Source: Schmidtea polychroa
Lineage: Eukaryota
Direction of reading: 5' to 3'
NCBI GenBank assembly: GCA_044892525.1
Contig: CM097887.1
Span: 2,542,001 to 2,606,000, forward strand
DNA length: 64,000 bases
Both the position numbers and the translations under genes were made by a program. The notes below the pieces were generated by a model, which saw only the letters and a list, made by a program, of their open reading frames with translations, had not been told where the DNA came from and did no database searches. Shown here in pieces: positions 35,041-58,802 of this stretch (its first letter is position 1; every line of letters begins with the position of its first letter).

Positions 35041-36119
35041 TGCTAAGATCAAAAAACGGGGATTACAGATCTCAACACAATGACTCCAATAATTGAATAA
35101 ATAGATAGATAAATAAATATAAATATGTTATATTTAATGTGGTTGCGCGTATAAGTTTAGATAACTGAATCAAGAACAAACACTTTTCTCTTTTTTTAAA
35201 ACTGTATTTGATAATTTACAAAATAATTTACAATTATTGTATAAAGAAATAAGATAACGGATTTATTAATCCCTGCTGTTTACCTCAGCCTGCAAGAGAT
35301 CGATGGCTCCTGTGTAGCACAACGATCGCAATGTAAGTAAAAAAGTTGGGCAAGCAAAAGGGAATGATTTTGGGGCTCCCAGGGAACACTAAAGTAAGAA
35401 GATCAGTACTTTGTGTTCACTTTTCACAGGATAATAATTTATCCCTCAATACAATAATTTTACCTGGCTTAACAGCGATACTGGTGTGAAACTATTCTTC
35501 TTTGAACTCTTTTCAAAACTCTCTGTTTTTCTTCTCTCTCTCTCTGTTTTACAATTTCGCTTGTTGTCAATTTATACTGAATTTGCACGGTTGAAATCAA
35601 TTCGTAATTTGAGTTGGAATTTCTTCGTGTGAGATTTGGTTTATCGAAACTCGTATTCAATTATTCAAATTTGATTTAAACAATCGAGACTTGTGTTAAA
35701 TTCCTTGTGTTAATTACAATTCTCTCAGTGATTTTTAATCACGTCTTTTTGCAATAACAATTAAATAATTTTCAAGATGTTTCTTTCCAAATGTTCTCTT
35801 TCTCCAATTTATTTGTCCCACTAAGTTATTCTCCAAATAATTTGTCTTACAAATATCCGTCGTCAATTTTATCGTCCCTGGTTCTCGTTTTGAACCAGTA
35901 TTTATTTTAATTATTTATTATATTAATAGCAATTTTATAATTACTATATATAGTAGCCGTATAATCAAATATTACTATATACTACTTATTTCTATTAATA
36001 GTAATTAATTAAACCTATCTTTTATTTTCAGTAATTCTTTATTATTTTTATTTATACTATTTCTAATTTTAGTAATTTTTAATTATTTTATCATCAAGGC
36101 TCCAGGCCTATCCCTAACA
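35041..36119 (-). repeat. 3' LTR (1079 bp)
   Basis: tgctaagatc...tccctaaca; direct repeat of 54196-54975 with extra ~250-bp and ~80-bp segments. Confidence 0.92.
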
Positions 36120-36364: not shown

Positions 36365-37724
36365 TTAGATATCCAGATCATCGGGATCTGGGTCTGGAAC
36401 TTTGTAAAGGTGCAACTCCTTCGTGCTGTAGCTATTTGCAACGACGTATTGCTGCAGCAACTTCTTTTTCCTCTTCTGTAAGACTTCTGGCTCAAAACTC
36501 ATTGCCAGAGGCTTACCATCCAGAGCACTCGTTAATATGACTGTAGACACTACATAAGGGATTCCGTCTACGTCATAAACATCATAATTTTGATTATTAT
36601 TGACTGCCATTCTCGTGACTGGTTGGCAGTCATACTCTTTGGCTCTGGGTTTCCATTTGCTATCCGGAATTTTGTACCACATTGGTTCGAAACCGTCCAC
36701 ATCAACCGAAACTGGTTTCTTGATGATATTCTCCTTGGAAATCTTTAACATTTTCTGCCTAACCACAGGTTCAGATTTAACCTTTATTGCTTCCTGCATC
36801 TCCTTAACCGGAGGTTGAAAAGCAACTTCCACAATGTCATCATCTGGTTCACTGAATATCTTTTTAGGTTTATTATTCTTATCTTCCATACTGCTGGGTG
36901 TCTCTTTTGTCGTTCCTTCGACGATCTAACAACTTTCTTCAACTTTAGCTTCGATTTGTCTCTTTTTATGGGTAATATTTTCTTTAACATCTTTTTCACC
37001 TTGCCTCCTTCTGGATTTTCTTTTCTGACCGCATTTCCGAATTATCCTTTGGCTGATAGGCAGCTCCCGATGATTGTTTGGGTGATTTTGCTATCTCCGT
37101 TTCACTAACGCATGTTTCATATTCATCTTCTTTTCCAATAGATATAGCTGGAGGCGGTAGTAGATCCACAGGTGATTTCCTTTTAGGCTGGGGTTGCTCT
37201 GATGTAGATGGTTGCTCGGGTAATCTCTTCTGCGTCATTTCCTGTTCAACTATCGCTGCTGTAGTTGCGGAAATGAATTCTTCCTGGGGTATAGTGATAT
37301 GGTCTAACCCTTCGTTTCTGATATGCAAATAAACCGCACGTATCGCCAGTGCCTCATTGGTGACCACTAAATTCCTCGGTTCTCCGGGAACCGTACGCAG
37401 GAAAGACTTTGTCAGGAATCCCAATCTGTAATGACCATGAATCTTTGGGACTCCTCTGGTTTCCAATAGTTTATTTGCAGAAAGGTCACGAATACCCAAT
37501 ATTCGCTGCACTGGTAGATTGGCTACCGAGATTAGATCTTTAAGTAAAATACCAACAAGTATTTTCTTATCACAAATCTTTCTTATCAGATGATAACAAT
37601 CATCTTCGCCGAGGTTACCTCTAATATCGGGTTCCTTTAACTTGTATTGATGCGTTTGGTAGTGTTTTACAGGGTCTCTAGGAGTCATTACCGCACTCAA
37701 TAAATTATTTCCCCTCATATCCAT
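36365..37724 (-). pseudogene. Accessory ORF B of the LTR element (probably one ~450-aa ORF broken by a frameshift and a stop); function unknown
   Basis: ORF 36996-37724; the shifted frame GEKDVKENITHKKRQIEAKVEESC*IVEGTTKETPSS continues in frame into ORF 36365-36889. Confidence 0.55.
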
Positions 37725-37733
37725 AATTGCGAT

Positions 37734-38432
37734 TTAGATAATTGTCTCCTTCAGTTCGATTCGGGATTTGGCAAAACCTGCCGATATGAAAATTGTAGCC
37801 TCGACCTCCTCGGCTTTGGCTAAATTTTTCCTCACAAATGATTTACACTGCTGTATATCAGCTTCATTTGCATTGTAAATCCAAGTTGGCTCGTTTTTGC
37901 TAACTATAGGGTATGGCTTCCTGAAGTCTAAGATTTCTACTGTGATTATGGTGTCCACCGCCGCTGCCTGGATCATAATATTCCGTTCTCGTCCATAAGC
38001 GTGGTATATCTCCAGAGTACACTGTTTTTCTAATTCAACCGGTAACTCTAATCCCGCCATAAACACAGTGAACGGCCTATTGATCGCATGGATCCAAATG
38101 TTTTCCAATTTCGGGCATGAACCATACTCTCTACATATTTCCGCCAATTTTAATCTTCCTTGGTTGTTTATAACCGTTATCATCATTTGCCTTCGAGGCC
38201 CTCCTGGGAACTTGAAATCGTTTGGAATATCCACTCTCCTGGGATAATACCAATAGTTTGAGGTGAGGTGATTCATTTTTGCTGCGACCGTGGTTCCGAT
38301 GAACCGATATACGTACTCTTCTTTATATGTGCTGTATACCTCAGTTTCAACTCGAGTCTGGGAATTGTACGTTGCCAATGAGTGTCGTCGATTTGCTTTG
38401 ACTGGTGGCTTTGGTTCTCTGTTGTAATTCAT
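37734..38432 (-). CDS. Accessory ORF A of the LTR element (232 aa, intact); function unknown
   Basis: ATG-to-stop ORF, same strand as pol, stop only 9 bp before the ATG of ORF B. Confidence 0.7.
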   Translation of the reverse strand: MNYNREPKPPVKANRRHSLATYNSQTRVETEVYSTYKEEYVYRFIGTTVAAKMNHLTSNYWYYPRRVDIPNDFKFPGGPRRQMMITVINNQGRLKLAEICREYGSCPKLENIWIHAINRPFTVFMAGLELPVELEKQCTLEIYHAYGRERNIMIQAAAVDTIITVEILDFRKPYPIVSKNEPTWIYNANEADIQQCKSFVRKNLAKAEEVEATIFISAGFAKSRIELKETII

Positions 38433-39656
38433 TTCTAAAAATAAATTAATTAACAGCTTTTATCACTTTCGTGATAGACCCTCGCAGGGTAACCAAAGTC
38501 GACATACGCTGATGTCTGATTTTACCGATGCTCATTTGAGCCCACATTAGTTTACATACTAATATAAATAAAATATTAAATAAATAATTATATATATTTA
38601 CACTTCCTAGTATATGGTGAGACTTTCCCCCTATACCTCGGTTTCGTAAATATTTTCCCAATAACGAATATCCCGCATATTTAATCTAAACATCCATAGG
38701 GTAGCTAATATCAAAATTAAAATCATGCAAATTACTCCCCCTATCATAATTAAGAATAACCAAGTTGGCGTTTAATCTCCCGTTGTCCCCTTTAACCCTT
38801 TGACGCTCATAAGCGTTGCCGGCATTTTTATCGCTTGAAATATTAATCAATCGACAGATTTTAGTCCATTAGTGAGTATTATTTTCAAAAAATAATTTAT
38901 TCTTTATTTTTTAGACACTACCTGGGGTGGTACATAAATACACCACTAAGCGATAATATGCAAAATATCCAATCAGTCAATTATATGATAAAGTGAATAA
39001 CACTGACGTTGAGCATTCAGACAGAGGTGAACATCACATGAACTGCATTTAATGTTGCTGCGGCAATCATGTCTTCGGGTGCTGCAGTATGTGCATCGCT
39101 TTCTGTCTTCTGTGAATACTGGTAAATGTTGTGGTGTAGGACAAGCAGCATTACTCGGTCGAATTTTCTTTGAAGGAGGATTGGCGGATGTCGCTCTCTG
39201 ACGACTACTGTAACGACCAGTGAGAGATAGCGCCACAGATCTGCGAAAGTCAAGAGCCTTCATTAGGTTGCCCTCATTTAGTTTCTTGAAAATGACATAG
39301 GAATTACACACACCAATATCCAGTAGGTCAAAGAAAATGCGTAAGTAGAACTTCACTTTTGACCTTTAAGTAAAAAAATCAAAACAAACAATGTATGTAG
39401 AGTTATAATGTGCACAGAGGCTGTAAATTTTTGCTTACCTTCGGTCGATTCCATATGCCTCTTTTCGTTGATCTGCAATGTCAACACCTCCCATAATTGA
39501 ATTATACGTCGAAACCATTTTTGGAACAGTTTTAGGCATTTTACCAGCCGTACCTCTTCGTCTTCTCATAACGGTCGTGGTTTCAAAAGGAGTCTCATAA
39601 TTGGATAGAATAGTGACAGGACGTTTGTTCATCCACTTTATTGATGAGATACTGCC

Positions 39657-42227
39657 TAGGGTGGAGCTTATTTTTGAACTTTCAAAATATTACCTTCTTA
39701 CCCTCCCATTCTGTTCCTATATATGAAAGAAAAATTCAGGCAAAATATGAACACAATTGAACAATATTTAGGGGTAGCTCAAGGACAGAGAAGTTTCTGA
39801 TACTCTTAAGCAGCGGCCGCCCATTTATTTACGGTACTTTACTATAGTAACTGAGAACTAAGTAAATTGAGACTTTCTCAGACTCTGATAATCATACAAC
39901 ATTTCAATCCTATTTTTACAATATACAATTAACACAAATTCTTCATAGTCCAGGCATGATCAGACTTGTTTAGTATGTTTACTGTGTGGACTGGCTATTG
40001 CAGGAGTTTGACAAATGTGTTTATAAATTTAAATTGTAAACAGTTGATAACACTACTATTAAAGTGAGCATTAAATTGCCCAGAGAGAAAAAGGAAGAAG
40101 GGGGTCGATGACTGGTGCAGATGAAAAACTTGCTGCTAAGGAGAAAAGATCATTTGAACGAGATGAGCAAATGCTTGCGAGGCGACAGCGAATGGAGCAA
40201 GTGAAGCAGTTAGCAGCTTCTACCGCTGAACTGATATCGTCATCTTCTGAAACCAGCTTAGATGGTGGAAACATGAAAAGTGGAGAAAATCTGAGTGATG
40301 ATGCTGCAGGAGGCAGCACATTTCGGACGCCAAAAAGAAAGAGGGGGCGAAAAGCTGTTATTACTCCAGAACTTGCAGTAGCTTTAGATAGAACTAAAGT
40401 GTCAGATCGCAAGGCTGTTTTCGTTATTGCAGAAACTGCTAAAAGCCTGGGACAGAACATCGATGAACTTGCTCTAAACAGAGACTCGATTCGACGACTT
40501 AGGGTAGAACATCGAGTTCAGAGAGCTGCCAACATAAAAGCAAAGTTCCAGGATAATGTACCACTTGTAGTTCATTGGGACGGCAAACTGATTCCTGATC
40601 TGATTGGAAAGGAGAAGGTTGATCGACTGCCGGTTTTGGTTTCTGGAAAAGGAGTATCTCAGCTACTTACAGTTGCTAAGCTTCCATCTGGAACAGGCGA
40701 AGCTCAGGCTGCTGCTGTATATGAAGCCATCAAAGACTGGGGCATAGCCAAGAGTATCCGAGCTATGTGTTTTGACACTACTAGCTCAAACACTGGTCGG
40801 ATTGCTGGTGCTTGTGTACTGTTAGAGCAGAAGCTTCAGAAGGAGTTGTTATCACTGGCTTGTAGGCACCACATTATGGAACTGATAATTGGGGCAGTTT
40901 TCCAGGTCTGCATGGGAGCCTCATCCTCCCCAGAAGTTGCACTCTTCAAACGCTTTCAAGAGTTCTGGAGATTTATAGATACGGCTAAGTATGAAGCAGG
41001 CACTACAGCTGATGACGTAGCAAGTTTACTGGAGGATATAAAGCAAGACACCGTCGATTATGCCAACAAGTATCTTGAACAGAGTCAGCCGAGAGATGAC
41101 TATAAAGAATTCTTGGAACTTGTAATTGTCTTCCTCGGTGCTGCTCCTCCCAGAGGTGTACGGTTCATGGCACCTGGTGCAATGCACCATGCTCGTTGGA
41201 TGTCCAAGGTGATATACAGCCTAAAAATTTGGATGTTCAAGGCGCAGTTCAAGCTGACTACTGCAGAAGAGCGAGGGTTGCGTGATGTTTGTGTATTTGC
41301 AGTACGAGTGTACCTGAAAGCTTGGATATCTGCACCTCAAGCAGCAGGTGCTCCATTCAGTGACTTGCTGCTGCTGAAGTCGCTGCTCGAGTACTCATCA
41401 ATACATGCAGCCATTTCAAAGGCAACATCTCGCAAGTTTGCAAATCATTTGTGGTACTTATCTGAGAAACTGGTAAGCTTGGCTTTTTTCGACAGTCGGG
41501 TCAGTTCGTCAACCAAACGACTGATGGTGAGTGCCATGCAAAATGATGAAAACCAGGATTCTGATCATTGCAAACGTATCACAGTTGCTCTTGGTTCATT
41601 CAAAGAGAAAAACTTGGAAGATTTTGTCACAGCTAAATCAATGATTCTGCTTCAACAGCTTGAACTGCCAGATGGATTTCTTGCAGTTGACCCAGACTTG
41701 TGGGGAGACAGAGATGATTACAAACAAGCTGCAGAAACAGTTACATCTCTAAAAGTTGTAAATGACCATGCTGAGCGTGGAGTGGCCCTCATTCAGGAAT
41801 ACAGTGGATTAATCACCCGTGATGAAACACAACTTCAATTCTTGCTGCAAGTTGTCCAGGACCATCGCAAAATGTATCCCGACAGCAGGAAAAAGACTCT
41901 GTCCGCCATCTCTGGGTTTACATAATAACAGTTAATTTCAAGTTTGCTGGACATTTACAGATTGTTTGTGTCAGAAGCTAAAGAAACATTTCACTATTAA
42001 TGTCTATGTGTGTAACACTGAAGTTTGCAAAAAAATAAAATAGAATCAGAATTTGTTGAATTTACAAAAATTTTATCATATTTCAGGCACTTGAGCTACC
42101 TCTAAACATAAAAATTTATTGCTTAAACTTTTTATACAGTGTTTCTATACCATAAGGAACAGATTAGGGGGGTAAGACTTTCAAAAATTATTTTTTTATT
42201 TTTTTTTATTTTTTAAGCTCCACCCTA
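39657..42227 (+). mobile_element. hAT-superfamily (hATm-like) transposon nested in the piggyBac
   Basis: TIR TAGGGTGGAGCTTA / TAAGCTCCACCCTA plus long imperfect subterminal inverted repeats; perfect 8-bp TSD ATACTGCC at 39649-39656 and 42228-42235. Confidence 0.93.
40108..41925 (+). CDS. hATm-like DDE transposase (605-aa uninterrupted ORF; 5' exons may be missing)
   Basis: VVHWDGK, FDTTSSNTG, ACRHH (CxxH), HHARWM, VVNDHAERGV; possible splice acceptor cccag just upstream. Confidence 0.85.
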   Translation: MTGADEKLAAKEKRSFERDEQMLARRQRMEQVKQLAASTAELISSSSETSLDGGNMKSGENLSDDAAGGSTFRTPKRKRGRKAVITPELAVALDRTKVSDRKAVFVIAETAKSLGQNIDELALNRDSIRRLRVEHRVQRAANIKAKFQDNVPLVVHWDGKLIPDLIGKEKVDRLPVLVSGKGVSQLLTVAKLPSGTGEAQAAAVYEAIKDWGIAKSIRAMCFDTTSSNTGRIAGACVLLEQKLQKELLSLACRHHIMELIIGAVFQVCMGASSSPEVALFKRFQEFWRFIDTAKYEAGTTADDVASLLEDIKQDTVDYANKYLEQSQPRDDYKEFLELVIVFLGAAPPRGVRFMAPGAMHHARWMSKVIYSLKIWMFKAQFKLTTAEERGLRDVCVFAVRVYLKAWISAPQAAGAPFSDLLLLKSLLEYSSIHAAISKATSRKFANHLWYLSEKLVSLAFFDSRVSSSTKRLMVSAMQNDENQDSDHCKRITVALGSFKEKNLEDFVTAKSMILLQQLELPDGFLAVDPDLWGDRDDYKQAAETVTSLKVVNDHAERGVALIQEYSGLITRDETQLQFLLQVVQDHRKMYPDSRKKTLSAISGFT

Positions 42228-44043
42228 ATACTGCCATTAGTGCTAACGTAAGAGTAAATATCACCCTCTTTCATACGCTTGTTAGCACGTACATCATCTG
42301 GCAAGTGTTTTCGTGATGTTCTGATAGTACCAATAGCTTGAACACCGTTTTCACGTAAATAGAAAAACAGCTCTACCGAGGAGAAGAAATTATCCATTGC
42401 CAGGATACAGTTTGTGTTGTGAAGACTCTTTGCCAAATGCATTATCACACTTCCACCTAGACCAAATTGGCGACCTTCATTATAAACTTTGCCTTGATAC
42501 ATGTCAAGTTCATGAACATATCCAGAACGTGATGATGCTCGGACCCACATTTTGAATCCCCAGGGTATGGGTTTTCCTTTGACGTACTGTTTCATTGCAC
42601 TTTTCCCAGTGAACTTAATCATGTGTTCATCAATTGACATTTCATTTTCCATTTCCATTGCAGCTTGAAACGCTTTGTTGAAATGGTTTATTAGTGGACG
42701 TACTTTGTACGCTCTGTCGTATTCCGGATTGTCTTTATGTGGCTGAAGAGCATTATCACTAAAGTGCAAATTCTTTAGGATAAATTCAAATCTTTTCACT
42801 GTCATCACATCGGCAATTGCATCTACATGGAGATCTCTGTCAGTTGACCAATAGTCACGGAGATTTGGTAATCTGTTATAGCCCATAATTATGCATATAC
42901 CCAGAAATGCTTTTATCTCTTCACTTGTTACATCGAATATAATTCCCTGTTGTTGAGCATACAATTTAGTTTGTTCAATAATGAGTGTTACAAGATCTTC
43001 AAAATTTGTTGTGATTTCAAATGAAGAGTAGGCAGTTGCAGGTTCAATATCCACTTTCACTTTTCCGAAATCTACTAGTTTTGTAGGTGTAGGGAATTCC
43101 AACAATCTCCGTTTTTTCTTTTGCCATTTTATATTTAAAGCCGTTGAATGCAACACATCCGAATCACGTTCTGAAATGGCAACAGAAACAAATATACGAA
43201 TTCGATTGAAATATATTAGGAAATCGAAGTAATGTACCTGACTCATCAGATAAGTCTTTAGATTCCTCATCAACATCTATGTCTAAAAACATAAAAATAA
43301 AACTTTGGTCACCATAAATGCTGATTTTAATTTGTAGCTAGCTTATATACCTTCTATTATTGTTTCGTCGATACCCATTTCAATGTCATTTTCAATCAGG
43401 GTAACATCTTCCTCATCAAGGTTTTCCATTTCGTCCTCAGAATTATCCGCCCATAAAAGTGAAATTGCTTTTTGAGCACAGGCTCTTCTTGAGTGAACAA
43501 TTCTTTTTTCTTTTGACATATCCTATAATAAAAATCATAAAAAATAAATAGCAAGTGTTAAAATATGTATTTTCATTTTAATTATATTTCTGTGCTATCA
43601 CTAAGTACTATCAATTTAGTAATTTAATAATGAACTATATAATACGCTAAATTTATGTTTACCGTTCTGTGGTATATATATATATATATATATACCACCA
43701 AGTTATTTCAGTTCTCTGAAGTACAAAAAAATAGTATTTAAGTTATTTTAATAGTCATTATGTTAGCTAAATCATTGTGAAATAATATAATATGAAAAAC
43801 GTTTTCAAAAACAAAAGATTACCTAAAATAATCTGAGTAGAAGATAATGTCTCAAAATTCTGAAAATTTCAAATATTTAACGAGATCGTATTAACTAAAA
43901 CAATGTTTTTATAGACACCAAAGATTCCAATGATAATATTTAGGCATATGAGAGTATTTTTATCAAAGGGCGAAACCAAATTATGTTTATTTATTGGTGA
44001 ACTATTTCGTTGAAGACGTGGTACATATATATACCACAGAACG

Positions 44044-44836
44044 TCAACTACAATTATTAATTAATTTATTTATGCGGGGCTGTTTTACACTCGCTACCTT
44101 TCTAATACTAAACCAATCCAAAGCGTTTATTCCTTTACAACCAGGAATATTTACTAATCTAGCCTTTCCTTCTTTGCTAGTTAGTTCTCCCTTTGTGGGA
44201 GGTATTAAATTTACTATTTCTTGATATATTGTATACCAACCGGTTCTTTCAGTAAACTCTAAATAAGAAATGTTCGCCTTTGTCACGATATCTGGTTTGA
44301 TTGCCCATCTTCTACTTAGATAAGCATGGTTGAGCACTAATCTCTCGACTCGCTGGTCATTTTCTAATATGACGATAAGCGCGATTTTATTATTCGTCCT
44401 CCAATCGTGAGTGGAAAGAGTATCATTTCTGTTCCACCGTGGATGAGTAAATCTTACTGTCGGCCCAAGATATGAAATCTCTACTTTTTTGGTAAATTTT
44501 GCAGTCTTCAAAATCCATGATGCTTTATCTACACAATCTCCTCCGTCTGCAAAAACGTTTGGGTCTGCAAAGAATGTCTTGATTTCTAGAAGATAACTTG
44601 TATTCGGCATAAGTCCCTCTATCCCATGTATTCAAGTGAAATGATATCCCTTTTTCAGCAGCTACCAAATATAGATCATATCTGTGCCATTGTATATTCG
44701 TTAAATGAAATCTGAATGCTCTATCTGTTCGTTGATATTCGATATCTGGATGTTGACTATCTTTTGGTGTAAATACCTCGAATGCTTGTCCAATCATCAT
44801 AACACAACTAATCACCGCTAGAAATGTAACTGTTTT
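44044..44836 (-). pseudogene. Post-integrase secreted/surface domain fused in frame to IN (signal peptide, FN3-like motif); truncated by the piggyBac
   Basis: After RYPLRSR: KTVTFLAVISCVMMIGQA-FEVF; frameshift near 44635 leads to IEGLMPNTSYLLEIKTF and ORF 44044-44610. Confidence 0.6.
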
Positions 44837-47800
44837 CGGGATTTGCCGAGATCGTAAAGGGTATCGTTCTGGTTGTCCCTTTAGGATACTTTTATATGAT
44901 TCTAACGTTTTCTTTTTCGATTTCTTATCTATTTCGAATTCATCAATTTCTGATTTTGGTTTCTCTTTTCCTGGCGGGGCTATCTTTTTACATCTGTTTG
45001 CATGAACCATTATCGGTTCTGCTTTTCTGTTTGCCACTAACTGCAAGACCAAATTGGTTTCTGTGACTTTCAAAATTTGATACGGCCCTTTGTAATTTCT
45101 CATTAATTTTGGAGATAAACCCTTTTTGTTGTAATGTCCCTCTACCATGACATAATCTCCAACCAAAAATCCATGATCCTTTGCCTTGCGATCATGATAT
45201 TCCTTCGTTGTTTCTTGGTTATAACGAATGTTCAAACCTGCTTTCTCCCAGGCTTCTTGCATTCTCTCTCTCATCTCGAATAAGTAATTTCCCTCATCAC
45301 AATTCTGTGAAGCTTTCGGATAAAATATAAGATCGACTGGCATCTTGCTATGCCTCAAATACATCAGATAGAAAGGTGTTTCTCCCGTTACTGAATGAAC
45401 AGCATTTCTATACGCAAACAAACATGATGGTATGTGTACATCCCAGTCTGTCTGACCTGAGTTTACGTATGATGATAACATGTTTACCAAGGTTCCATTG
45501 AACCTTTCTACCAATCCATCCGTCTGTGGGTGGTATGGTGAGGTATTTAACTTTAAAATACCAAAGTAATCATTTATACCTTTTAACAAATTACTCATGA
45601 AATCCTTTCCTCTGTCGGTAAGCAATTTTGTCGGAACACCATATCTAAATACAATATGTTCTACAAATATTCTGGAAATTGTGTCTGCCTTATGATTCGG
45701 AATTGGGAATGCTTCGGGCCACTTCGTTAAGTAGTCGCAAAATACTATGATAAATTTATTTCCCATCTTCGATTCTTTAAACGGCCCTAGTACGTCCATA
45801 GCAGTCATCTCCATTGGCGAGGACGGTACTGGCATTGGTTTCAATGGAACATGTGGTTTCCTGCCTGTGTTCCTTCTGGTTATACATATCTTACATGATT
45901 GACACCACTTTTTAACATCATCTTTCATATCTGGCCAGAAGTATTTCATTTTTAATCTCGATAGTGTATGTCTAGCTGAGAGATGTCCTCCCAGTGCTCC
46001 ATCGTGATATTGTAATAGTAGTGATTCTCTGTATTTCTTTGGCACTAATATTACATTATCTCTTGATTCCACATATTTGATTAGACCTTCTTCCAATATG
46101 AATTTATCTTTATGTTTCTCCCAATACTTCTGAAATTCATTTGGTATGGCCTTTGCTTCTATAGCTTGTCTGATCATATTGATCTCGTCATCATTTTTCT
46201 GCGCCTCTACTAAATCGCTCAAAGTGTTAGCCTCTCTTGTTAGCATGAAGGTAGTTCCTTCTAATCTTCCTTCCTTTATATCTTCTAACTCAGGCTCTTG
46301 CTCCATTCGTGATAATGCGTCTGCATTACCATTAACTTTACGATATACAATTTCGATATTATATGACTGTAATCTCAATGCCCATCTTACTAACTTTGAT
46401 GCTTTGTCTCTATGTTTTAACAGCCATTGCAATGGTTTATGATCTGTATAGAAAATTACCTTTCTGCCCCATAGGTAATGACTAAATTTTTCCACTGCAA
46501 ACACTAACGCTATAATGCTTCCAATTCTATTACAGCATAACTTTTTTCGTGTGGCTTCAATCCACGACTTGCATATGCAACTGCGTACTCATCGCTAATT
46601 TCGTCTTTCTGTCCCAAAACTGCACCTATACCTCTTGTGCATGCATCGGTCATCACCATGAATTGTCTTTTAAAATCTGGAAATCGTAAAATTGGTGGTT
46701 TGCATAGTGCATCTTTTAACTTATCGAATGCCTGTTGTTGGTCTTCTCCCCATAAAAATTTTATACCTTTCTTTTCTAAGGTAGTTAAAGGAAAAGCAAT
46801 TGCTGAGAAATTTCGTATAAATTTTCTGTAATATCCCGTCAACCCTAAAAATCCTTTGATTTCTTTCACATTCACTGGTTGTGGGAAATTCTTTACTTTA
46901 TCCGTGTTAGCCGGATCTGGTCTTACGCAATCGTGTGATATTACATGCCCCACGTAAATCACTTCCGATTCTGCCCATTTGCATTTGCTTGGCTTTACTT
47001 TCAGGTTAGCCATAATCAATCTTTTGAAAATGTCCTCAAGGTGTTCCAAATGTTTATCTAAATCTTCCGAGATGATAATATCATCTATATATACCATTGC
47101 ATGATGTGCATCCATCAACATGATATTCATTGCCCTCTGGAAAGTTGGAGGGGCTCCTTTTAATCCAAACGGCATTACTAAGTATTCAAAATGATCACTA
47201 CTTGTAGAAAATCCTGTCATAGGAATTGAGTCTTCGCTCATCTTTATTTGATAAAAACCTTTCTGTGCATCCATCACAGTAAACAACTTTGAATTTTTCA
47301 TTTTATCATAAATGTAATCTAGCAAAGGTAGCGGGTGATTATCACTAACTGTTTGTTCATTTAATTTCCTATAGTCATTGCATAATCTAACTGAGCCGTC
47401 TCTTTTAGCTACAACCACCAAAGGTGAGGAATATGGAGATTTACTGGGTCTGATTATATTATATTTTTGCATTAATTTAATTTGTTTATCAACGGACCCC
47501 TGTATACTTTGAGGTATTCTGTATGGGCGTATCTTTATCGGTTTATTTTCTGTTAATTTAATTTCATGCTCTAGAATATTAACTTGCCCTAAGTCATATT
47601 CGTGTTTTGCGAAAACTTGGTCATATTTACGTAACAATTGATTAACTCTGATGTTTTCCTTTCTAGATAAGGCTTTACTATCGCAGCTCGGTGCGTCATA
47701 ATATTCAATTTCAGGATCTCGTTCATCCTCTTCTACTGATAATATCGATTCAAACTCTTTCTGCATGTTAGATAGTTGTATCACTTTACCCACTCTAGTC

Positions 47801-48597
47801 TCTGGGTATAATCTCAATGATTTGCTCGCTAGATTCGTTAATCTAATCGGGATCCTTCCTCCCCGTACTGTTGCCAAGTTTTTCACCATAGGCGTTTTAT
47901 ACCTATTTACGAACTGCTCACTCGGTTCGAAAATAACATCTCCTTCCACCTCTTGGTGTGTTGCTACAAAACAAACTGTTTCGGTCCTCGGTGGTATTGT
48001 CACCGTTCTATCCAAAAACACTACATCCACACTGTAGGTTTTCCGTTTTCTACCCGTCATTTTCACTAATTCGCCTGTTGCACAATCGAATACAATATCT
48101 TTTAACTTTTTCAATATATCCATTCCCACGATACATTCTGCCAAACATTGTCTAGTGACCTTGATATCGTGTCTAAATTTTTGATCACACAACCTTAATT
48201 CACAATCTAATGTTCCGATAACATTGATAGGTTGTCCATTTGCTCCCGATGCCACGGTTAATGTCGGCACTATTGCTTGTAATTCTTTTTCATTTAATAA
48301 ATTTGCTTCGATCAATGTCAAATCAGATCCTGAATCAATAATGACATGTACCGTATGTCTGTTAACTTTTAATTTGATCGTAGGTTTATGAGTCTTTTTA
48401 CCCATATTGACCATTAATATTGCTGAGATTCCTCGAATATTGTCTCTGAACCTTTGTTGATCATCACTATCTTTGTCATTTTCTGATTTTATTTCATCCT
48501 TATACTCTTCCTTTAGCCGTTCCAACGTGCTAAATGGATATTTCGGTACCATCTCCAATACTGATGTACCCAAGGGTGGCATTGTCTCGAACTTCAT
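44837..48597 (-). pseudogene. pol: pol: aspartic protease, RT, RNase H, integrase (Ty3/gypsy order)
   Basis: IIDSGSDLTLI; RLCNDYRKLN, MPFGLKGAPPTFQR, YIDD; TDACTRGIGAVL, YTDHKPL; HHCC (GGHLS..CKIC), MDVLGP, TDRG, VERFN; a 2-bp TA insertion frameshift at ~46510. Confidence 0.95.
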
Positions 48598-48725
48598 TTG
48601 ATACGTTGGTTATGAGGTAGATGGTAATATATCTGTATTCGTTCTGAACTCGAACCTCTTTAGCATTTCCTCTTCAACTCGTTCTGGTATTATCTTTTTT
48701 CTACCCTCGTATGGTGATAAATAAT

Positions 48726-51482
48726 TCACAGGCCACTCCTGCCGTTTAGTTGTAAAGTACTATTTTCAAAATTTTGAGATTTCGGTTTTTTGTTGTCTGG
48801 TTTTATTGAGGTGTTGTCTGAGGTCTCATAGCCCTCTAGGTTACCTCCCTCGTCAGAATTGTCATCGTCTCGATGACTAGGTTCGTACATTATTAACTCA
48901 TGCTTCTTAATAGTTTGTCTCTTCATTCTCTTAATCTCTTTATTATGATGATGAAATACTGCAAAATCTGCACAGACTGGACACATCCCTAGTAGCAACT
49001 TCCAAGACCATCCCCCGATCTTGAAGATACTATAGGTGGAAAATAATTGCGATATGATTATTTTCAATATCATCACTATTGCATATATACCTGATCATCC
49101 TGCTACAAAAATGCCAAAGCTTGTAAATCTCCCCCAGATTTTCCGTATTACATTTGATGCAGCTTGTTTGTAATGTTCTGGTCCAAATAATAAGTTATAG
49201 TCCGGTTTTCCATCATATGATTGATAAATTCTTGTTATTATCTCTGACATTCCCCGATCTCTGATTTGGGGAAATACAATTGCTCTCCGAGCTTCTTCAA
49301 TATCTTCCGGAGTATATACTCCGCCTTTTGACATCTCGTTTAATGGTTGAAACTCCACTTTAGTTTCTAACTTTGTAGCCTGAAGCACTTCAACTGGTTT
49401 TGAAGGCGGCTTTCTGTCTGGCAACGAAATCCAAATATTGTTGATTTTGTATAATGGTGACATTGCTGGATTGCAAATTGCTGTTAATGGTGAGGTATCC
49501 TCCTTTAATAGCTGGTGTGATACTGGCATCAGGAATCTCAATTTTCCTTTATATTTCACTAATAGCTCCAATGTACATCGATCATATTTGGTAATTTCCA
49601 CCTCTATTGCTTTACATTGATAGCTAGAAATTGCTTCGCCCAAAATTCTACCAAATGTTCCTTCCTCTGTCGACATTGGCATTATTAAATCAGGATTTGC
49701 TATAGATATTGCTAATCTATTTCGTATTATTTCCCGATTTAAACGACAGTCGTTCAGGATCACTTCCTGATACACATCTAATAATTGTTTCTGCAAATCA
49801 TGATACAAGAAATCAATCTTATTATTGATATACTTGGCTATTTTAATATCTGATAAATGTAATGATTCTGCTGCTGGAACATATTTGTATGCTAAGTATA
49901 TTCCCTTGTAGTTGGTTTCAAATATTGGTACACCACATTTTGTTGTCTGTTTCTTTCTGACTAAACGGATTGCATCTGTTGGGTTCTTGGAGACTAATAC
50001 TACTGCTGTGCTTTTCTCCGGTACTACTTCCTTTTTCGTTTTGTGAGCTATCTTGTCTCCCCAACCACTTTGTTGTGAATCCTGAGACGTAAAGCTTTTC
50101 CCATCTAGCCTTGAAAATACTACCTTTTTCAGGTATCCTAAATCACAAAAATCTCTCATTGATTGGTACGTTAGTACTGCCAAACTGGTTTTACAATAAC
50201 CATATTTCACGTTGCATTCTGGATTAGACATCATTTTTCCCGTGGATACTTCGAAAGTTCCTTCGTACTCGATCAGCTCTACTGTGTAGTCCTCAACTGT
50301 TACCACATAACTTACTACATTGGAACCTCTTACTTTCTTTCTGCCATGACAAGAACCATCATCTGCTGTCGGTCCTCCCCGGGTAATAGTTATACCCAAC
50401 TTTTTCCCTTCTTCCGCGGTAATTGTTAGCTCATGATCTATTTTAACTGTTTTTGACCGAAAAGCATTTAGACAATCCTCTGGTGGGATGATTAACGGTA
50501 TAGGAATGAGTTTAGCTCCTAAAAATGCTTAATAACTATTCGATCCACAGTAATATTCAAACGTCGCTCTCTGGATTCGACATTCCCTCACTCTAGTTCT
50601 GTAAAACTCTGTTTGCTGATAAACATGATATTCTACGTCTTCCCTTTTTGCAACTTTATCTGGATATGCTTCCTTGCATTCCACTGTGTCTACTAATGAG
50701 TAGATTCGCGATAGTATTGGTTCATTACAATCATATGACGTTAGGGAACTTGTCTGTCGCAATATTCCCATCATTACCAACAACATCTTCATCCAACTAG
50801 TAAATCCACCTGCTCCCCGTGGACTACTTTTCATTTTCCCTTTCGTCAAGCCTTCATCTATGAATTGTCCTGCTACTTCGAACATCTCTTGTTCTGTGGT
50901 GCCTCCTGGAATCTTTTCCATAGCTTTCTTGACTTTTTCTGCAATTTTGACAACATTAACACTTTTATCTTTCTTGATTTGCCAATCGGGCTTAATCAAT
51001 CGTAAGATTTGATTCAGTCTTTTCCATGTTTCCGTTTTATCACTAGCGTCTCCAACGCTTTTATCAATTTGGCTAGCTATCCCTGCTAGAGCCTGCTTCG
51101 TTACATTTTGTATTGTAACTGGTTTTAGAAGTTCTCTTGGAGGCGGGTTCATTTGACTTTTCCTCGGTCTACCCCTTCTCTCCCTCTTCTTTTTATTCTC
51201 GACTAGCTTCGGGCTCACCCTTTCTCTTGGTGGCTCGACTTGTCGCGAAGTGCTAGCTCCGATGTTTGCTTCATTTCGGTTTAATTGCACTTCCTTATCT
51301 TCCTCTGTTGGAAATATTTCCATCAACTCGTCTTCAGTATTATCAAGTTCCTTTAGATATTTATCTATCTCTTCATCTAAATCTACTGTAGTTACGGGTT
51401 CTTGATGAATATCCCCATCTACTTGTTTTTGCTCGGGATGTACAGTTTCATCTCCCATTTCGGCATTATCTGGAAATCTCAA
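48726..51482 (-). pseudogene. Acidic/AT-hook linker + chuvirus/gB-like (class III) envelope glycoprotein, between gag and pol; two in-frame stops
   Basis: Internal signal peptide WMKMLLVMMGILRQTSS-LTSYDC; YYCG; DGSCHG; YINNKIDFLYHDL; DCRLNREIIRNRLAI; GEAISSYQC; GGVYTPEDI; C-terminal TM KIWGRFTSFGIFVAG*SGIYAIVMILKII..GWSWKLL; the three ORFs share one frame. Confidence 0.8.
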
Positions 51483-51508: not shown

Positions 51509-54056
51509 CTACCATAATATTAATACAACTGTTTCCTCATTGGGAAAACATCCAACATCTACTAGAAATTCGTCGTCATCCACCTGACAACCATGTATCA
51601 TTTTTAGGAATGATTCTTTTAATATTTCTGATATTCTTTTTATCAGTTTCTTTACTCTATGATAACACGAGAATTGTTGTATCAGGTGTCCTCTCCTGGG
51701 TAACCTGATACCTAACATTACTGGACCTTGTCTACCTTCCAAATGTCTACCTTGCAAATGTCCATTTTTAATCAGCAGCATTTTTTCTTGTGCCTGGAAT
51801 TGTGATGTCTCTTTTACTAAAGGCACCACCAATGGCATTATCTCTCTAAGAGTATCTACTGGGATTCGCAGCTCCAGTATCCAGTCCATTATCATCTTAA
51901 TGGCTTCCCCATCTCTTGGGTTTTTCATCAGCTCGATTCCCAATCTATGTGGTACGGCTGATATTTGATTTAATTGATCAATTTCTATCTCGCTTTTTGT
52001 AAGGACATTATCCAAGTCCACTACTGTAACAGTTTCCTTGTGAAACTTTGCTTTTATAATCATATGTTTCCCTGGTAGTATACCACAATCTAACAGGGTT
52101 TCTCCCTCTAATAATTTTTCTCCCAATAAATATAGTTTGCATCTCAATTGAGGTTTTAACTCCGAAACTCTCTTTGCCAATGCTTCTACCTTTTCACTTG
52201 GGTTAATCGTATATCTACGAAAACAACCCTTTGGGAGAGATACAAAAATTGTAGAATCCTCCAGATTCTTTCTTTGTTTCCAATTTAGGCCAATATTTCT
52301 CAGAATTTCTCTCAATTCTGGATGATATTCCTCATTTCTGTCTAACTCTGATATGATATCCATTACTTTGTCAACCTCATTCTCATTAACGGGGTTTAAA
52401 CGAATATTTTCTAATTTCTGTCTCATTTCTCTTTGCCATACGCTCTTGCGTAATAATACTTTTCTACAGTCATCGATGGGATTCCTTTCCTCTTTCGATG
52501 CTTCTCTAACCTTTATTGGTTCACTACCACACTCACCTCGCATGGATGATGTGGCTATAAGGACTTCCGGCTCACTGACCGAAGCCCATCTTTTTTCCAA
52601 AACTTCTGTTGGAACAATTACATTAGCTACTGGATCCATGTCCAAAATCTTACGATTTTTAACTGGTGAAACCGGTAAACCTTCTATTTCTCTGTTGGCT
52701 TTTGGCTCCATTGCCATAGCCACTAGATTTTTCCTGGGTGAAACCTGTAAACCCTCACAGACCATAGTCTTTTCCTCTTTGTCCTCCTGCGGACTTTCTT
52801 GAAGCATCAACACTTCAAGTTCTACATAATTATTTTTATTTCGCCTCTTTTTGGCTGACGTCATATAAACAGCTTCATTTTCATCATACCCATCGGTTTC
52901 ATTTGTTGTCAGCCTTGCTAACCTGTTTCTCTCTTCTTGAATTTCTAATTCAAGCTGCTGCAAATACGTTAATTTATGATCTGAATTCACTGCAAACGTT
53001 GTCTGCTTCGATCGATTATTACCATTGTTACTACTACCATTGTTAACTGATAACTGATAACTGTATAGATAATTAGATAACTGATTTTGTGGACAAGAAC
53101 GCATAATATGACCAAATTTTCCACACTTATGACATTTAATTTTACCCCCCGAATTTACTTCATCCCTTTTAATATTATTATTAAAATTATTATTTCTACT
53201 CTGAAAGTTATTATTATTATTATTAATACCACGAAAATTCCTATCGGGGCTTCTATTTCTATTATTATTATTATTTGAATTATTCCCCCCAAAACTAGCT
53301 TTACAAACTGACGCTACATGTCCCACACTTGGTACATAATTTGTCCCCTGGAGAATTATTCCTACTTTTACAATCTTTTGACATGTGTCCCTTTTTATGA
53401 CAATTAAAACACTCAATGTCTGACTTATTGCTACTAATTGCAAAATTATTTGACTTCTCAATGCTACTTTCAATTAAACACGCTTTGCGAGTTAATTCCT
53501 CTAAATTATCTCCTATGTGTAAACTGAGTGCATTTCTCATTGCTCACGATAACCCTGACCAAAACTGATCTTTTACTAATGCTCTAGTTGCATCATTCCA
53601 GGCTGCCCTATTGCCAAATGCTCTCTCTGCCAACATCACTATTTGATATGAAAATTCCCCAACATGCTCACCCGAATTTTGTCGCTTGTTATAAAACTGT
53701 TGTCTCAACACTCTAGTTGCATCCCATGGTAATATTCTGTTTTGTAACGCTAATCGTAATACATTCCATTCAACTGGATGCTCGGCTATTATAACATCGT
53801 TATATATTTCCCGCGCCATCCCTTTTAAATATAAAGGTAATCTCAAAATCATTACCGGTTCCGGAAATCCTAATGCTCTGGCTAACTGAAAATATTCGGA
53901 CATAAATTCTGGAAACTCCCCTGGGTTTCCACTAAATGGTTTAATCGGAATTGTTGGATATCTCATAAAATCTACCGCTGGTGGTTGAGCTACCGGCATA
54001 TTATTATTTTGTAAATTATTCTCATTTAGATTTTGTAAATTATTTATATCTGCCAT
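51509..54056 (-). pseudogene. gag: gag with three CCHC knuckles, Asn-rich spacer and an embedded ubiquitin-like domain
   Basis: Capsid-like PIKPFSG..F..F, LPLYLKGMA, RQNSGEHV; CFNCHKKGHMSKDC, CTKC/GHVASVC (frameshifted), CHKCGKFGHIMRSC; Ubl at 52044-52256. Confidence 0.88.
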
Positions 54057-54174
54057 TATTTGTTGGTTTCTATTACCTGGTCTAAAATTTATTACTCTCC
54101 TATTTCTTAACTCAATGATTCAAAAAGATGTTTGTCTTTTATAAATAAAAATTCTTATTCCCCCCGTAAATTAT

Positions 54175-54195: not shown

Positions 54196-54975
54196 TGTTA
54201 AGATCAAAAAACCGGGATTACAGATCTCAACACAATGACTCCAATAATTGAATAAAATAAATAGATAAATAAAAATAAATATAAATATGTTATATTTAAT
54301 GTGGTTGCGCGCATAAGTTTAGATTACTGAATCAAGAACAAACTCTTTTCTCTTTTTATAAAACTGTATTTGATAATTTACAAAATAATTTACAATTATT
54401 GTACAAAGAAATAAGATAACGGATTTATTAATCCCTGCTGTTTACCTCAGCCTGCAAGAGATCGATGGCTCCTGTGTAGCACAGCGATCGCAATGTAACT
54501 AAAAGAGTTGGGCAAGCAAGAGGGAATGATTTTGGGGCTCCCAGGGAACACTAAAGTACGAGATCAATACTTTGTGTGAATTATTCAAATTTAATTTAAA
54601 CAATCGAGGCTTGTGTTAAATTCCTCGTGTTAATTACTAATCTCTCAGTGATTTCTAATCACGTTTCTTTGCACTAACTATTAGATAATTTTCGAGATGT
54701 TTCTTTCCAAAATTTCTCTTCCTCCCCTGGTTCTCGTTTTGAACCAGTATTTATATTATATTTTAATTATTTATTGTATCAATAGTAATTTTATAATTAC
54801 TATATATAGTATTAGTAACACTAGTTGTTACTAATTATAGATTATTTATTATTTATAGTATTTAAATATGTTTAAACTTTATTTTAAGTAACTCTTTATT
54901 GTTTTTATTTACAGCAATTCTTATTTTAGTAATTTTATTTATTTTATCCTCAAGGCTCCAGGCCTGTCCCTAACA
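54196..54975 (-). repeat. 5' LTR (780 bp)
   Basis: tgttaagatc...tccctaaca; TG..CA; followed on the minus strand by the PBS. Confidence 0.92.
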
Positions 54976-55600: not shown

Positions 55601-57430
55601 GTATACGGACGATACCATGGACTCTGTTGATTCTGAAGAAGAAGGAATGATACTGAAAGAGGGGCTAGAAAAAGTTTGGGCAATGCCGGAATGTGGCCTA
55701 GAAAATGGCTGCCAACTCGGAAAGAATTATGACTACAATCCCAGTTGAAGAACGGGCTAAAACACTGAATATTGAAAAGGAAGCGACAATGACCGTCAAG
55801 ACCCTAGGTTTGAAATGGTACTCTGAAGACAATGAATTTAGTTTTCAAGTAGATCTGCCGAATGAAGAATGTTTATCGAAAAGAAAGGTATTGAGCATAG
55901 TGGCAAGAATCTTTGATCCATTTGGACTGTTAGGCCCATTCATAATCATAGGGAAAAAGATTATTCAGAAATTATGGTTGTTAGGGCTTGATTGGGACGA
56001 AAAGCTACCCCGAAAGTTTAATAAAGAAATACACAAGTGGGTAGAGGATACAAATAATCTCGGAGATTTGCAAATTTCGAGATGTTTAAGGACTTAAATG
56101 AAAAATGAATGGCAATTAAATGTATTTTCCGATGCGTCAAGCACAGCATATGGGTCAGCTATATATCTACAGGAAGATACTAAGGTAGGACCTAAAAGTG
56201 TGTTGATTGCATCAAGGGCAAAGGTAGCTCCAGTGCAAATTATAAGTATACCAAGGTTAGAATTAATGGCAGCGTGTACTGGGGTTAAATTAGCAAGACG
56301 GGTTTCAGAAGTGCTGGGCAAACCGATGAGTGAGATACGGTTTTGGTCCGATAACAAAGACGTAATACATCGGGTTCGAAATTATTCGAGACTATTCAAG
56401 CCATTCGTAGCCAATCGAATTAGGTTCATTCAAGAAATGACAAAACCAGGGCATTGGGCTTTATGTTCCAACGATTGAAAATCCATCAGACTTGATCACA
56501 AGAGGATTATCGGCGTCGGATTTGATAAAAAGCACCATGTGGTGGAAGGGGCCGAAATTTCTACTAGAACTAATGGGAAATTGGCCAGCGACGGAGTTAA
56601 ACCAATCAAGTGCAACGAAGGAGTTCCGACAGGGAATAACAATGATGGCATGTGTAGAGGGGCAAATACGAATAGGAAATACGGACTGTTTCAAAGTAGA
56701 AACCTTTTCCTCGTGGCAGAGATTGGTCAGAGTTCGGACCTGGGTGGAGAGATTTATTTTGAATACGAGAACGACACAGTCTCAAAGAAGCACAGAGCAA
56801 CTGACAACTGATGAACTTAAAAGAACGGAACTCAATGTGATTAAAGGAGAGCAGGCGAAGTTTTTCTCTGAAGACCTGGCACGACTTATCAAGAATGAAA
56901 GGATAGATATCAGAAGCAGTTTGTTAAAGTTGACATCAGTTTTAGATGAGATGAAGGTGTTACGAAGTAATAGCCACATAATGCATGCAAAGAATTTACT
57001 ATGTGAGACAAAATATCCAATATTAACCATAAAAGATTGCCATGAAAGTTTGAGCCATTATGCAGAAACCCAACACGTCTTAAGTGTGTTGAACGAAAAA
57101 TATTGGATTTTGAAAGCCAAAGTAATGATCAAACAATGTGAGACAGAATGCGGAATGTGTAGGGAAAGAAGAGCTAAAGGAATGAGTCAAATAATGGCAC
57201 CGTTACCGGCGTTCAGGGTTTCAGAACCATTTAGAGCCTTTGTTCACTCGGCAGTAGATTTTGCAGGACCGTTTGAAACTAAAGTAGGCAGAGGAAAGGT
57301 GAGAAATAAAAGGTACATTTGCCTATTCGTATGTTTAAAATCACGGGCGGTGCATATTGAAATGGCATATGGTTTGGACACGGATTCATTCATTCGAGCT
57401 TTTATGAGTTTTGCAGCGAGGCGAGGAATG
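55600..57430 (+). pseudogene. BEL/Pao LTR retrotransposon pol fragment (RT end, RNase H, integrase)
   Basis: Y.DD..DS, KTLGLKW, KRKVLSIVARIFDPFG, FSDAS..AYG, KVAP..SIPRLEL, FVANR, NPSDL.TRG, WWKGP, VDFAGPF, RAVHIE, F.ARRG.P. Confidence 0.9.
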
Positions 57431-58802
57431 CCAAAATCGCCAAAGCCAAACTACGCGTAATGAGAATTAAATGTGAAGGAAAGAAGATATTAAGATGTAT
57501 CTCCAAATTATTTTTAATTATAAAAGAAGAAGGAGAAGCTAATGGGGATTTGAGATTGACACTAAGATGTCAAGGAGGGGGGGCGGGGGAGGATGGTGAA
57601 TTATGAGTTTATGTGTTGCGTCTATGGGTTTTTTGTTTTGTCATTGGATTAATTTGTGTGCTTACACAGACGCGGACAATTGTCGAGTTGAGATCGAATT
57701 TTTATTTATGATCGGTTTTTGATATTTTGGCTGTAACAATTTTGGTTTTTTATGTGAAGTTGTTTAAATTTTGTAGATTTTCTGTAAATTTGAAAATAAA
57801 AAGGTTTTAAAATTCGTTTGGCGTGCTGATTTCGAAATGGAAAAATTAGTTTGGAATATCTACTGTTGGAATGGATGAATGGACAATTAAACAGACACCA
57901 TTTATTACTCAAGTTCAATCTTTAGCTGATTTAAGAAAAGTTTATTCGTTTCGGCCATTATCTCAATATTCATTATGTAAAGCATGTGAAGATCTTAATG
58001 TTGCAGTTTTACGATTTATTTCAGCTGCTGAAACTATTGCTAAATATTATTCTCAGAATTCATCTGAAATCGCTAATTCTTGCAATTGAAGTCGTTCTCT
58101 GCTATCAAGTTTGAAATTGACCTTCCAAACAGATAAAATCATCATAGTGGTTCTTTCTAACATTGACCGGGTAAAAGCTATTAGGCACCTGTGTTGAGTA
58201 TTTTTGAGAAACTCATAATTCACCAGGTAGGGTATATAAGGTAGATCCTAACTGGTTCTTTTAAGCACAATGCTACATGAATATCAAAGGCATTTTTATG
58301 TCTTATCCCATTAAGACAATTGGGGCCCAAGTTTACACATATTTGAACATTACAGGATCTACTCTGTTGCGAATTCATTAATTTTTGTAAATTAAAATCT
58401 GCGGTGTAATGGAAATAATCCCAGTCTTCCAATAATAATAAGTAAATAGGTTAGTAGTGTGTATGATGGGAATCCTACCCCGCCCACCCCCTAATTCGCT
58501 CGTAAAAACAAGTTTTTTTTCACTCGCTCACCCTTCGGGAGAGGTTTGGTCAACGTAAGATTCCCATTATACACACTACTACAAATACATCAATATTTAA
58601 ATAATTTTAAAAATATTATTTTATTAATAATATCGAGTACCCGAATTTTACTGGTACCCAAGAATAAAAAAATTAAAATATACAGATTTGATAATTCGAT
58701 GATTCTAATAATTCTAATATTTCTAATATTTTCAATATTTCTAATAAAACTGGAAATCAGTAAATACACTAATTCCCAATATTATAATATAAACCATCTA
58801 AA

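Follow-up and report, generated by a model that had tools for sequence, protein, structure and literature searches.

Among the captured domains of retroelements, a ubiquitin-like domain (Ubl) in the Gag extension of an element of Schmidtea polychroa raises the question of how it came to be there and what it could do for its carrier. The window analysed here is a stretch of 64,000 nucleotides (positions 2,542,001 to 2,606,000 of contig CM097887.1, assembly GCA_044892525.1), in which a preliminary description made from the sequence alone had placed one Ubl at 52044-52256, read as a non-conjugatable domain captured by the retroelement. The domain and its place in the Gag extension are borne out (a beta-grasp is predicted, with Z 10.5), but the borders were a few bases off and out of frame: the domain (Ubl1) comprises 69 residues at exactly 52046-52252 on the minus strand, the plus strand being interrupted by a stop across the same span. 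The single Ubl was real but an incomplete picture, as a second one (Ubl2, 51515-51724) and a homologous helical domain before each Ubl had been overlooked.

Ubl1 lies downstream of a CCHC knuckle in a stop-to-stop frame (51509-53473, minus strand) of a gypsy-type LTR element that runs from about 54975 down to 35041 on the minus strand and is 93-95% identical to a natural sister copy over Gag to Pol. Intact sister copies consist of one 3516-aa frame with the order capsid, CCHC knuckles, extension with two modules, Bcl-2-like domain, class III Env (PF24664), protease, reverse transcriptase (RT), RNase H and integrase. In the window copy, Gag, the stretch just behind Ubl2, Env and RNase H all carry stops or frameshifts, the Bcl-2-like part has a deletion, and DNA transposons have added 5.2 kb; being broken, it cannot make the polyprotein, and any function therefore concerns the family. 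The stretch is covered by one sequencing run, which we guess to be RNA, DNA being possible. Enveloped retroelements are abundant in this genome, with more than 100 matches for each of several families. The parts of the window element are the following:

54196-54975, minus strand: 5' LTR (partial), by self-match to 35041-36119 (94.3% over 383 nt, 89.8% over 147 nt, 80.2% over 252 nt)
53544-54119, minus strand: Gag capsid region, with a premature stop at its end in the window copy (Retrotrans_gag E=0.06; 97% identity to a natural sister copy)
53090-53137, minus strand: last CCHC zinc knuckle of Gag (zf-CCHC E=6.9e-5, over the cut-off)
52289-52465, minus strand: helical half of module 1 (sister-copy model with three helices, pLDDT about 80; homology to helical half 2)
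52046-52252, minus strand: Ubl1, predicted beta-grasp without GG (Pfam and PDB sequence matches, AlphaFold model, structure searches)
51995-52036, minus strand: short predicted beta-hairpin between the modules (model strands 5-8 and 13-16, pLDDT about 70)
51758-51991, minus strand: helical half of module 2, five predicted helices (pLDDT 81-95; 54% identical between families A and B)
51515-51724, minus strand: Ubl2, predicted beta-grasp, with a frameshift behind it in the window copy (model and structure matches)
51159-51194, minus strand: basic stretch with an AT-hook-like RGRP motif (by sequence; 6 of 11 proteins have RGRP; the relative P0011 gives Pfam AT_hook E=0.027)
50832-51104, minus strand: Bcl-2-like domain, its BH1-BH2 side deleted in the window copy (Pfam Bcl-2 E=0.0068 in a sister copy)
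50745-50804, minus strand: hydrophobic stretch, likely an internal Env signal peptide (directly before the start of the PF24664 match)
48726-50744, minus strand: fusion glycoprotein (Env) of class III type, interrupted by stops (three-part match to PF24664 Monjiviricetes_fusion, E=5e-9, 3e-51 and 6e-5)
44525-48609, minus strand: Pol, with protease, RT, RNase H and integrase and a frameshift in RNase H (Pfam matches)
36365-44631, minus strand: what is left of a second ORF, interrupted by about 5.2 kb of DNA transposons at 38797-44044 (no Pfam family)
35041-36119, minus strand: 3' LTR (window self-match)

The integrase is followed by a long tail with a hydrophobic stretch, for which no Pfam family was found. 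The second ORF after Pol, likewise matching no Pfam family, measures, from stop to stop, 775 aa at L032:1764-4088 and 604 aa at L034:2200-4011, and its remains in the window occupy 36365-38796 and 44044-44631. The insert between these remains holds a piggyBac-like DDE_Tnp_1_7 frame (42206-43276, E=8e-68) and a 616-aa frame (40075-41925) with no Pfam match. About 1 kb beyond the 3' LTR, a proteasome-subunit match (PF00227, 33103-33891, E=1.8e-7) is flanked by a 192-nt inverted repeat (32948-33129 and 33903-34093). Beside the truncated 5' LTR, 55700-57460 looks by eye like a broken BEL/Pao-like pol (RNase H and integrase region), Pfam giving only Integrase_H2C2 at E=0.13.

By sequence alone the likeness of Ubl1 to ubiquitin is above chance yet weak. 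The Pfam ubiquitin match that the preliminary description had called for was found (PF00240, E=0.004), but its 17.3 bits do not reach the gathering cut-off of 25.4 bits, which is also above the best score among relatives (21.9 bits). Searching PDB sequences with Ubl1 at E<=10 returned 51 matches, mostly ubiquitin or NEDD8, the best at E=8.8e-5. The fold was modelled by AlphaFold on a natural sister copy whose Ubl1 region is 91% identical to the window. This model, unusable past residue 154, has good confidence over residues 6-154 (pLDDT 75-92 for the beta-grasp blocks), which run as three helices followed by strand-strand-helix-strand-strand. Ubl1 in this model aligns structurally with ubiquitin and UBLs at Z 10.5-8.8 (the best ten rows covering 70-77 residues with rmsd 1.4-2.8 A), Foldseek gives 211 PDB matches at E<=0.001, and identity to ubiquitin in structure-based matches is about 20-25%. 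The model thus predicts membership of the ubiquitin-like beta-grasp superfamily, with a beta-beta-alpha-beta-beta-beta topology that superposes on ubiquitin; the lack of a beta-grasp prediction, which the preliminary description had named as speaking against it, did not occur. The donor UBL family is not nameable, as the best profile match shifts with the alignment among UHRF1, ubiquilin 3 and ISG15, with E about 2e-5.

The C-terminal GG of type I conjugatable modifiers and of pestivirus-type processing inserts is absent behind the last Ubl strand in all 27 module rows that reach that strand (32 rows in all), and Ubl1 would on this evidence belong with neither. We regard Ubl1 as an integral, non-conjugatable Ubl of predicted ubiquitin fold, and here the preliminary description, which had also noted the missing GG and had set the domain apart from pestivirus-type processing signals, was right. 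Type II UBL domains such as those of ubiquilin, UHRF1, the ISG15 C-domain and Rad23 share the beta-grasp, and the integral ones among them likewise have no free GG end; their hydrophobic patch is not kept in the module.

Ubl1 is the C-terminal half of a helical-plus-Ubl module of about 150 aa, present in two tandem copies in the Gag extension. A profile built from 13 outside rows (with no row of family A or B) matches the window frame twice, at residues 329-476 (26.7 bits) and 514-651 (89.9 bits); module 1 by itself reaches 30.7 bits, where 300 shuffles give 4.9 at most, and the two helical halves are homologous to each other (hhalign 96.4%, E=1.2e-9). The model of module 2 (pLDDT 89.4, pTM 0.83) consists of five helices and a beta-grasp, and its Ubl2 (pLDDT 96-98) matches SUMO, ISG15 and ubiquitin at Z 12.0-10.3, with rmsd 1.4-1.9 A in the top rows. 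Taken alone, Ubl2 finds no Pfam or PDB ubiquitin match by sequence and is visible only through profiles and folding.

For the helical half no such relatives emerged: against PDB sequences nothing was better than E=0.052, an Atlas search gave no usable match for it and only leads below 0.85 for the whole module, and the structure match lists obtained with whole-module models are filled by the Ubl part. A by-eye likeness of the helical half to TFIIS-N/LEDGF-type (TND) domains was rejected at the sequence level, hhalign against 12 host-type TND segments (from 35 PF08711 matches in the genome) giving 0.39% and a score of 10.2 versus 15.0 for the reversed profile. As a separate observation, many near-identical TFIIS-N frames (IWS1-like by eye) lie on one contig arm (G000:C2:164-172.5 Mb), which suggests an expanded gene family.

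How widely the module occurs was examined by a profile search of 1.84 billion representatives, which revealed 31 proteins; of the 27 looked at, 20 align with the extension and 7 are polyubiquitin-like. Gag knuckle or capsid matches are present in 6 of those 20. A word-indexed protein search limited to lengths of 660-2100 yielded 3868 candidates and none at E<=0.001, and of 66 pattern matches in viral contigs none was confirmed as a related locus. Two modules are found in families A to F of this genome (F is broken) and in P0003, P0005, P0011 and P0033 (the last from a fragment), and a single module in P0007, P0010, P0015, P0029 and a giant Burro1-like element. In a tree of the 21 of 32 module rows with at least 120 residues, 6 of 7 first modules group together at 87/89 (a grouping of all 7 has p-AU 0.37), a result compatible with a single old duplication. 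Capture of the Ubl is an old event in the clade, followed by internal duplication; the preliminary description was wrong in assigning the capture to the element of the window.

Sister copies carry the domain, and the one-off capture that had been named as the other adverse outcome is not borne out. Of 297 candidates for Ubl1 in the genome, 150 were scored and 124 matched, among them a second family (B) at 33-38% identity. At 34 family A loci, chosen by their Ubl1 match, Ubl1 is whole in all 34 and stop-free in 32, and Ubl2 is whole in 26. Compared with one reference, each of 13 long-frame copies shows 5-7 synonymous changes per 47 sites in Ubl1 and 1-5 replacements per 166 sites, a replacement-to-synonymous ratio of about 0.05-0.24 (the 13 pairs share the reference and are not independent); this comparison, called for in the preliminary description, indicates that Ubl1 is under purifying selection. 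Between families A and B, where synonymous sites are near saturation (0.67-1.0), amino-acid identity is 22% in helical half 1, 31% in Ubl1, 54% in helical half 2 and 47% in Ubl2, compared with 59% in the capsid, 64% in Env, 73% in RT and 40-41% in aligned linker columns. Module 1 is thus maintained, yet changes faster than any other folded part. A mosaic pattern was also observed within family A: between L008-L024 and L031, about half or more of synonymous sites differ in the linker (9 of the 11 copies with data for it) and the Bcl-2-like domain (10 of the 11 with data for it). In the modules the share is about an eighth, a contrast suggestive of recombination just behind Ubl2.

The surface of the module was examined in ubiquitin numbering, with the ubiquitin-like unit of P0022 as the ruler. 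Second and single modules keep K22 (18/22), R27 (18/22), D51 (21/22), D52 (18/22), D53 (19/22), E54 (21/21), Y55 (19/21), D58 (14/20) and G60 (19/20), and residues 22-27 and 51-60 are taken, from the known structure of ubiquitin, to lie on the face opposite the I44 patch. Positions 8, 44, 68 and 70 (L8, I44, H68 and V70 in ubiquitin) are variable across the module family. In the window Ubl1, L8 is replaced by P, I44 by Y and V70 by K, and the family signature is partly lost as well (A27, T55 and E-E-G at 51-53), so that this copy lacks the canonical patch and has the signature only in part; more of the conserved face is retained by the first modules of families C and D. The conserved L8-I44-V70 patch of canonical ubiquitin-receptor ligands (Rad23/Dsk2-type UBLs, Gag-Ub fusions) is missing here.

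Behind the module stands a Bcl-2-like domain in families A, B, C, D and E, the giant element and P0007. Pfam Bcl-2 matches are all under the cut-off (family A E=0.0068, C E=0.013, E E=0.0046); in family B the assignment rests on 35% identity to A, and for D and the giant element it comes from a profile made of three natural segments. P0007 stops after the Bcl-2-like part without Env, which links the cassette to Gag and not to Env. RGRP lies between the module and the Bcl-2-like domain in families A and B, the giant element and several outside relatives, and behind the module in P0020 as well; families C, D and E have no GRP motif. P0015, in which no Bcl-2 match was found, combines Gag, one module, RGRP and Env with four successive aspartic-protease matches and has no RT match in its 2296 residues.

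The clade is already known to carry a Ubl in polyproteins of this type. The planarian giant gypsy Burro1/GYPSM1 was reported with a 'Ubi2/SUMO-like (PF11976)' motif between MATH and BCL-2, and Burro elements were described as having an in-frame Env that separates Gag from Pol (Arkhipova and Yushenova 2019, PMC6431247); in the available part of that text the motif receives one clause, with no helical half, duplication or surface. Burro1 and the window family have in common one polyprotein with Gag-CCHC, Ubl, BCL-2-like domain, in-frame fusion glycoprotein and Pol, and the Burro-like GAG-ENV-POL layout is found in the window family, with Env in frame between Gag and Pol (in sister copies) and the Ubl followed by a BCL-2-like domain before Env (by sub-cut-off Bcl-2 matches). 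The window family differs in its frame of 3516 aa versus 4873 and in its two modules, and it does not qualify as Burro1 proper, a polyprotein of about 4,900 aa with MATH and ankyrin and a BIR gene, as its frames gave no match for MATH, BIR or ankyrin. A separate giant family of this genome has MATH, Env, Pol, ankyrin, TRAF and BIR-RING matches; its order is MATH, module, Bcl-2-like, Env, with TRAF and BIR-RING in separate frames. Its module (residues 231-364 of the examined stretch, between MATH and the Bcl-2-like part) scores 18.6 bits against at most 6.8 in 300 shuffles, and its PR-RT is 37% identical to that of the window family over 626 residues. The published 'Ubi2/SUMO-like' motif is most likely this helical-plus-Ubl module. 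This Burro1-like element, with its separate TRAF-type and BIR-RING frames (L079-L090), is of high copy number, and all 150 scored BIR candidates matched.

GAG-ENV-POL errantiviruses of flatworms with HSV/gB-type Env have also been catalogued (Chary and Hayashi 2026, PMC13524379). By eye the closest of them is Smed_errantivirus_4, with the same gene order and Env class and 66 of 92 positions agreeing at the Env start (a by-eye count); 'ubiquitin' has no occurrence in the main text and searched supplementary files of that paper. Among the papers that literature searches brought up, we found none with the helical half, the module duplication or the conserved face as its subject, judged by title and abstract opening. 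The feature is known in kind; what these searches leave as new is its architecture.

We put forward, tentatively and as the likeliest reading, that the Ubl module is a non-canonical docking adaptor in a host-modulating cassette shared with the Bcl-2-like domain. Relative to the Env signal peptide the cassette would be cytosolic, and the element's own protease would free it; the module would use the face opposite the I44 patch to dock on a protein of the host or of the element, without conjugation or GG clipping. Module 2 may retain the ancestral binding job, with module 1 evolving faster as a duplicate and contributing avidity or another partner. Such a partner would probably come from cell-death or ubiquitin signalling, because the giant relative places the module beside MATH, TRAF and BIR-RING genes. 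Such an adaptor is supported by the ubiquitin fold that the models predict, the duplicated module, the absence of GG, an I44 patch that varies while the opposite face is conserved, the selection on Ubl1 and the constant Bcl-2-like neighbour; the Ubl1 signature, largely lost, an A-B identity in Ubl1 (31%) below that of the linker, and Bcl-2 matches that stay sub-cut-off (E 0.005-0.013) speak against it. The conserved basic and acidic residues, adjacent on the fold, may instead be structural, pairing mutually or with the helical half, as in the K27-D52 pair of ubiquitin. A bolder version, which we consider unlikely, would make helical-plus-Ubl a two-part domain family, so far undescribed and confined to enveloped GAG-ENV-POL retroelements, packaged with Gag, delivered with a Bcl-2 mimic to newly entered cells and hijacking one host ubiquitin or cell-death enzyme via a surface rarely used by known ubiquitin receptors, the duplication giving avidity or a second target.

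Several other readings are held to be less probable. The helical half and Ubl could form a rigid structural unit that, placed between nucleocapsid and membrane anchor, serves the Gag precursor as a spacer or makes it oligomerise, with the conserved face packed inside the polyprotein or particle; the pTM of 0.83 for the helical half with Ubl2 suggests a fixed arrangement, both halves always co-occur and duplicate together, and helical half 2 is better conserved than either Ubl. Ordinary gypsy Gag, however, assembles without the module, and one or two modules are both tolerated, so that we hold this reading to be somewhat unlikely. The RGRP motif behind the module and the basic first Ubl helix would suit a chromatin or nucleic-acid tether, in which the module, together with the AT-hook-like motif, guides the pre-integration complex to chromatin or influences LTR transcription, but with the motif missing from three families and the TFIIS-N/LEDGF likeness outscored by a reversed profile, a tether seems improbable. 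Module 1 as a decaying passenger, a redundant duplicate without its own function, would account for the long branches and low identity of most first modules; this is largely refuted, and very improbable, given that it stays in frame in six families (the measured ones about 22-38% alike), with few replacements relative to synonymous changes and a core that still models confidently.

Two further readings would have the module act as ubiquitin itself does. A canonical mimic could recruit ESCRT for budding, target the precursor to the proteasome or act as a decoy for ubiquitin receptors, as the preliminary description had suggested. The element has an Env, PTAP, PSAP and PPxY are absent from all 11 proteins scanned (a YPxL-like string occurs in 2 of the 11, and the giant element has one PPxY, within its MATH domain), position 44 is an aromatic Y in the Ubl1 of families A and B, and GG-less ubiquitin fused to Gag rescues budding according to the available part of PMC2958808. 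That rescue, however, requires L8 and I44 (PMC2958808), and here position 8 is P and position 70 is K or T, while position 44 is Y, Y, K, N, E, H and D in seven first modules and also varies in 22 others. Because the L8/I44/V70 patch is not conserved and the opposite face is, these roles through the canonical surface are disfavoured, and the suggestion is weakened to a quite improbable one. Cleavage by host deubiquitinases, as with a pestivirus-type processing signal, would suit the position inside the polyprotein and the BVDV ubiquitin inserts among the fold matches; we give it hardly any credence, as pestivirus inserts depend on their GG end and are near-exact copies of host ubiquitin, whereas no row here has GG, identity to ubiquitin is low and the element encodes its own protease. 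Cytopathic pestivirus inserts and the engineered Gag-ubiquitin described in the available part of PMC2958808 do share with the module a ubiquitin fold within a viral polyprotein, with the difference that the GG end needed by the former and the L8 and I44 needed by the latter are both absent here.

One giant relative has been reported to protect planarian stem cells via a captured anti-apoptotic gene (Lee et al. 2026, as cited in the available part of PMC13465017). That polyproteins of this type carry a Ubl is no novelty in itself, and the significance of the module is modest until its partner is found. It is nevertheless the most constant cargo observed among these enveloped retroelements, and its borders, duplication and conserved face turn a one-clause annotation into a small soluble protein fit for pull-down or crystallisation.
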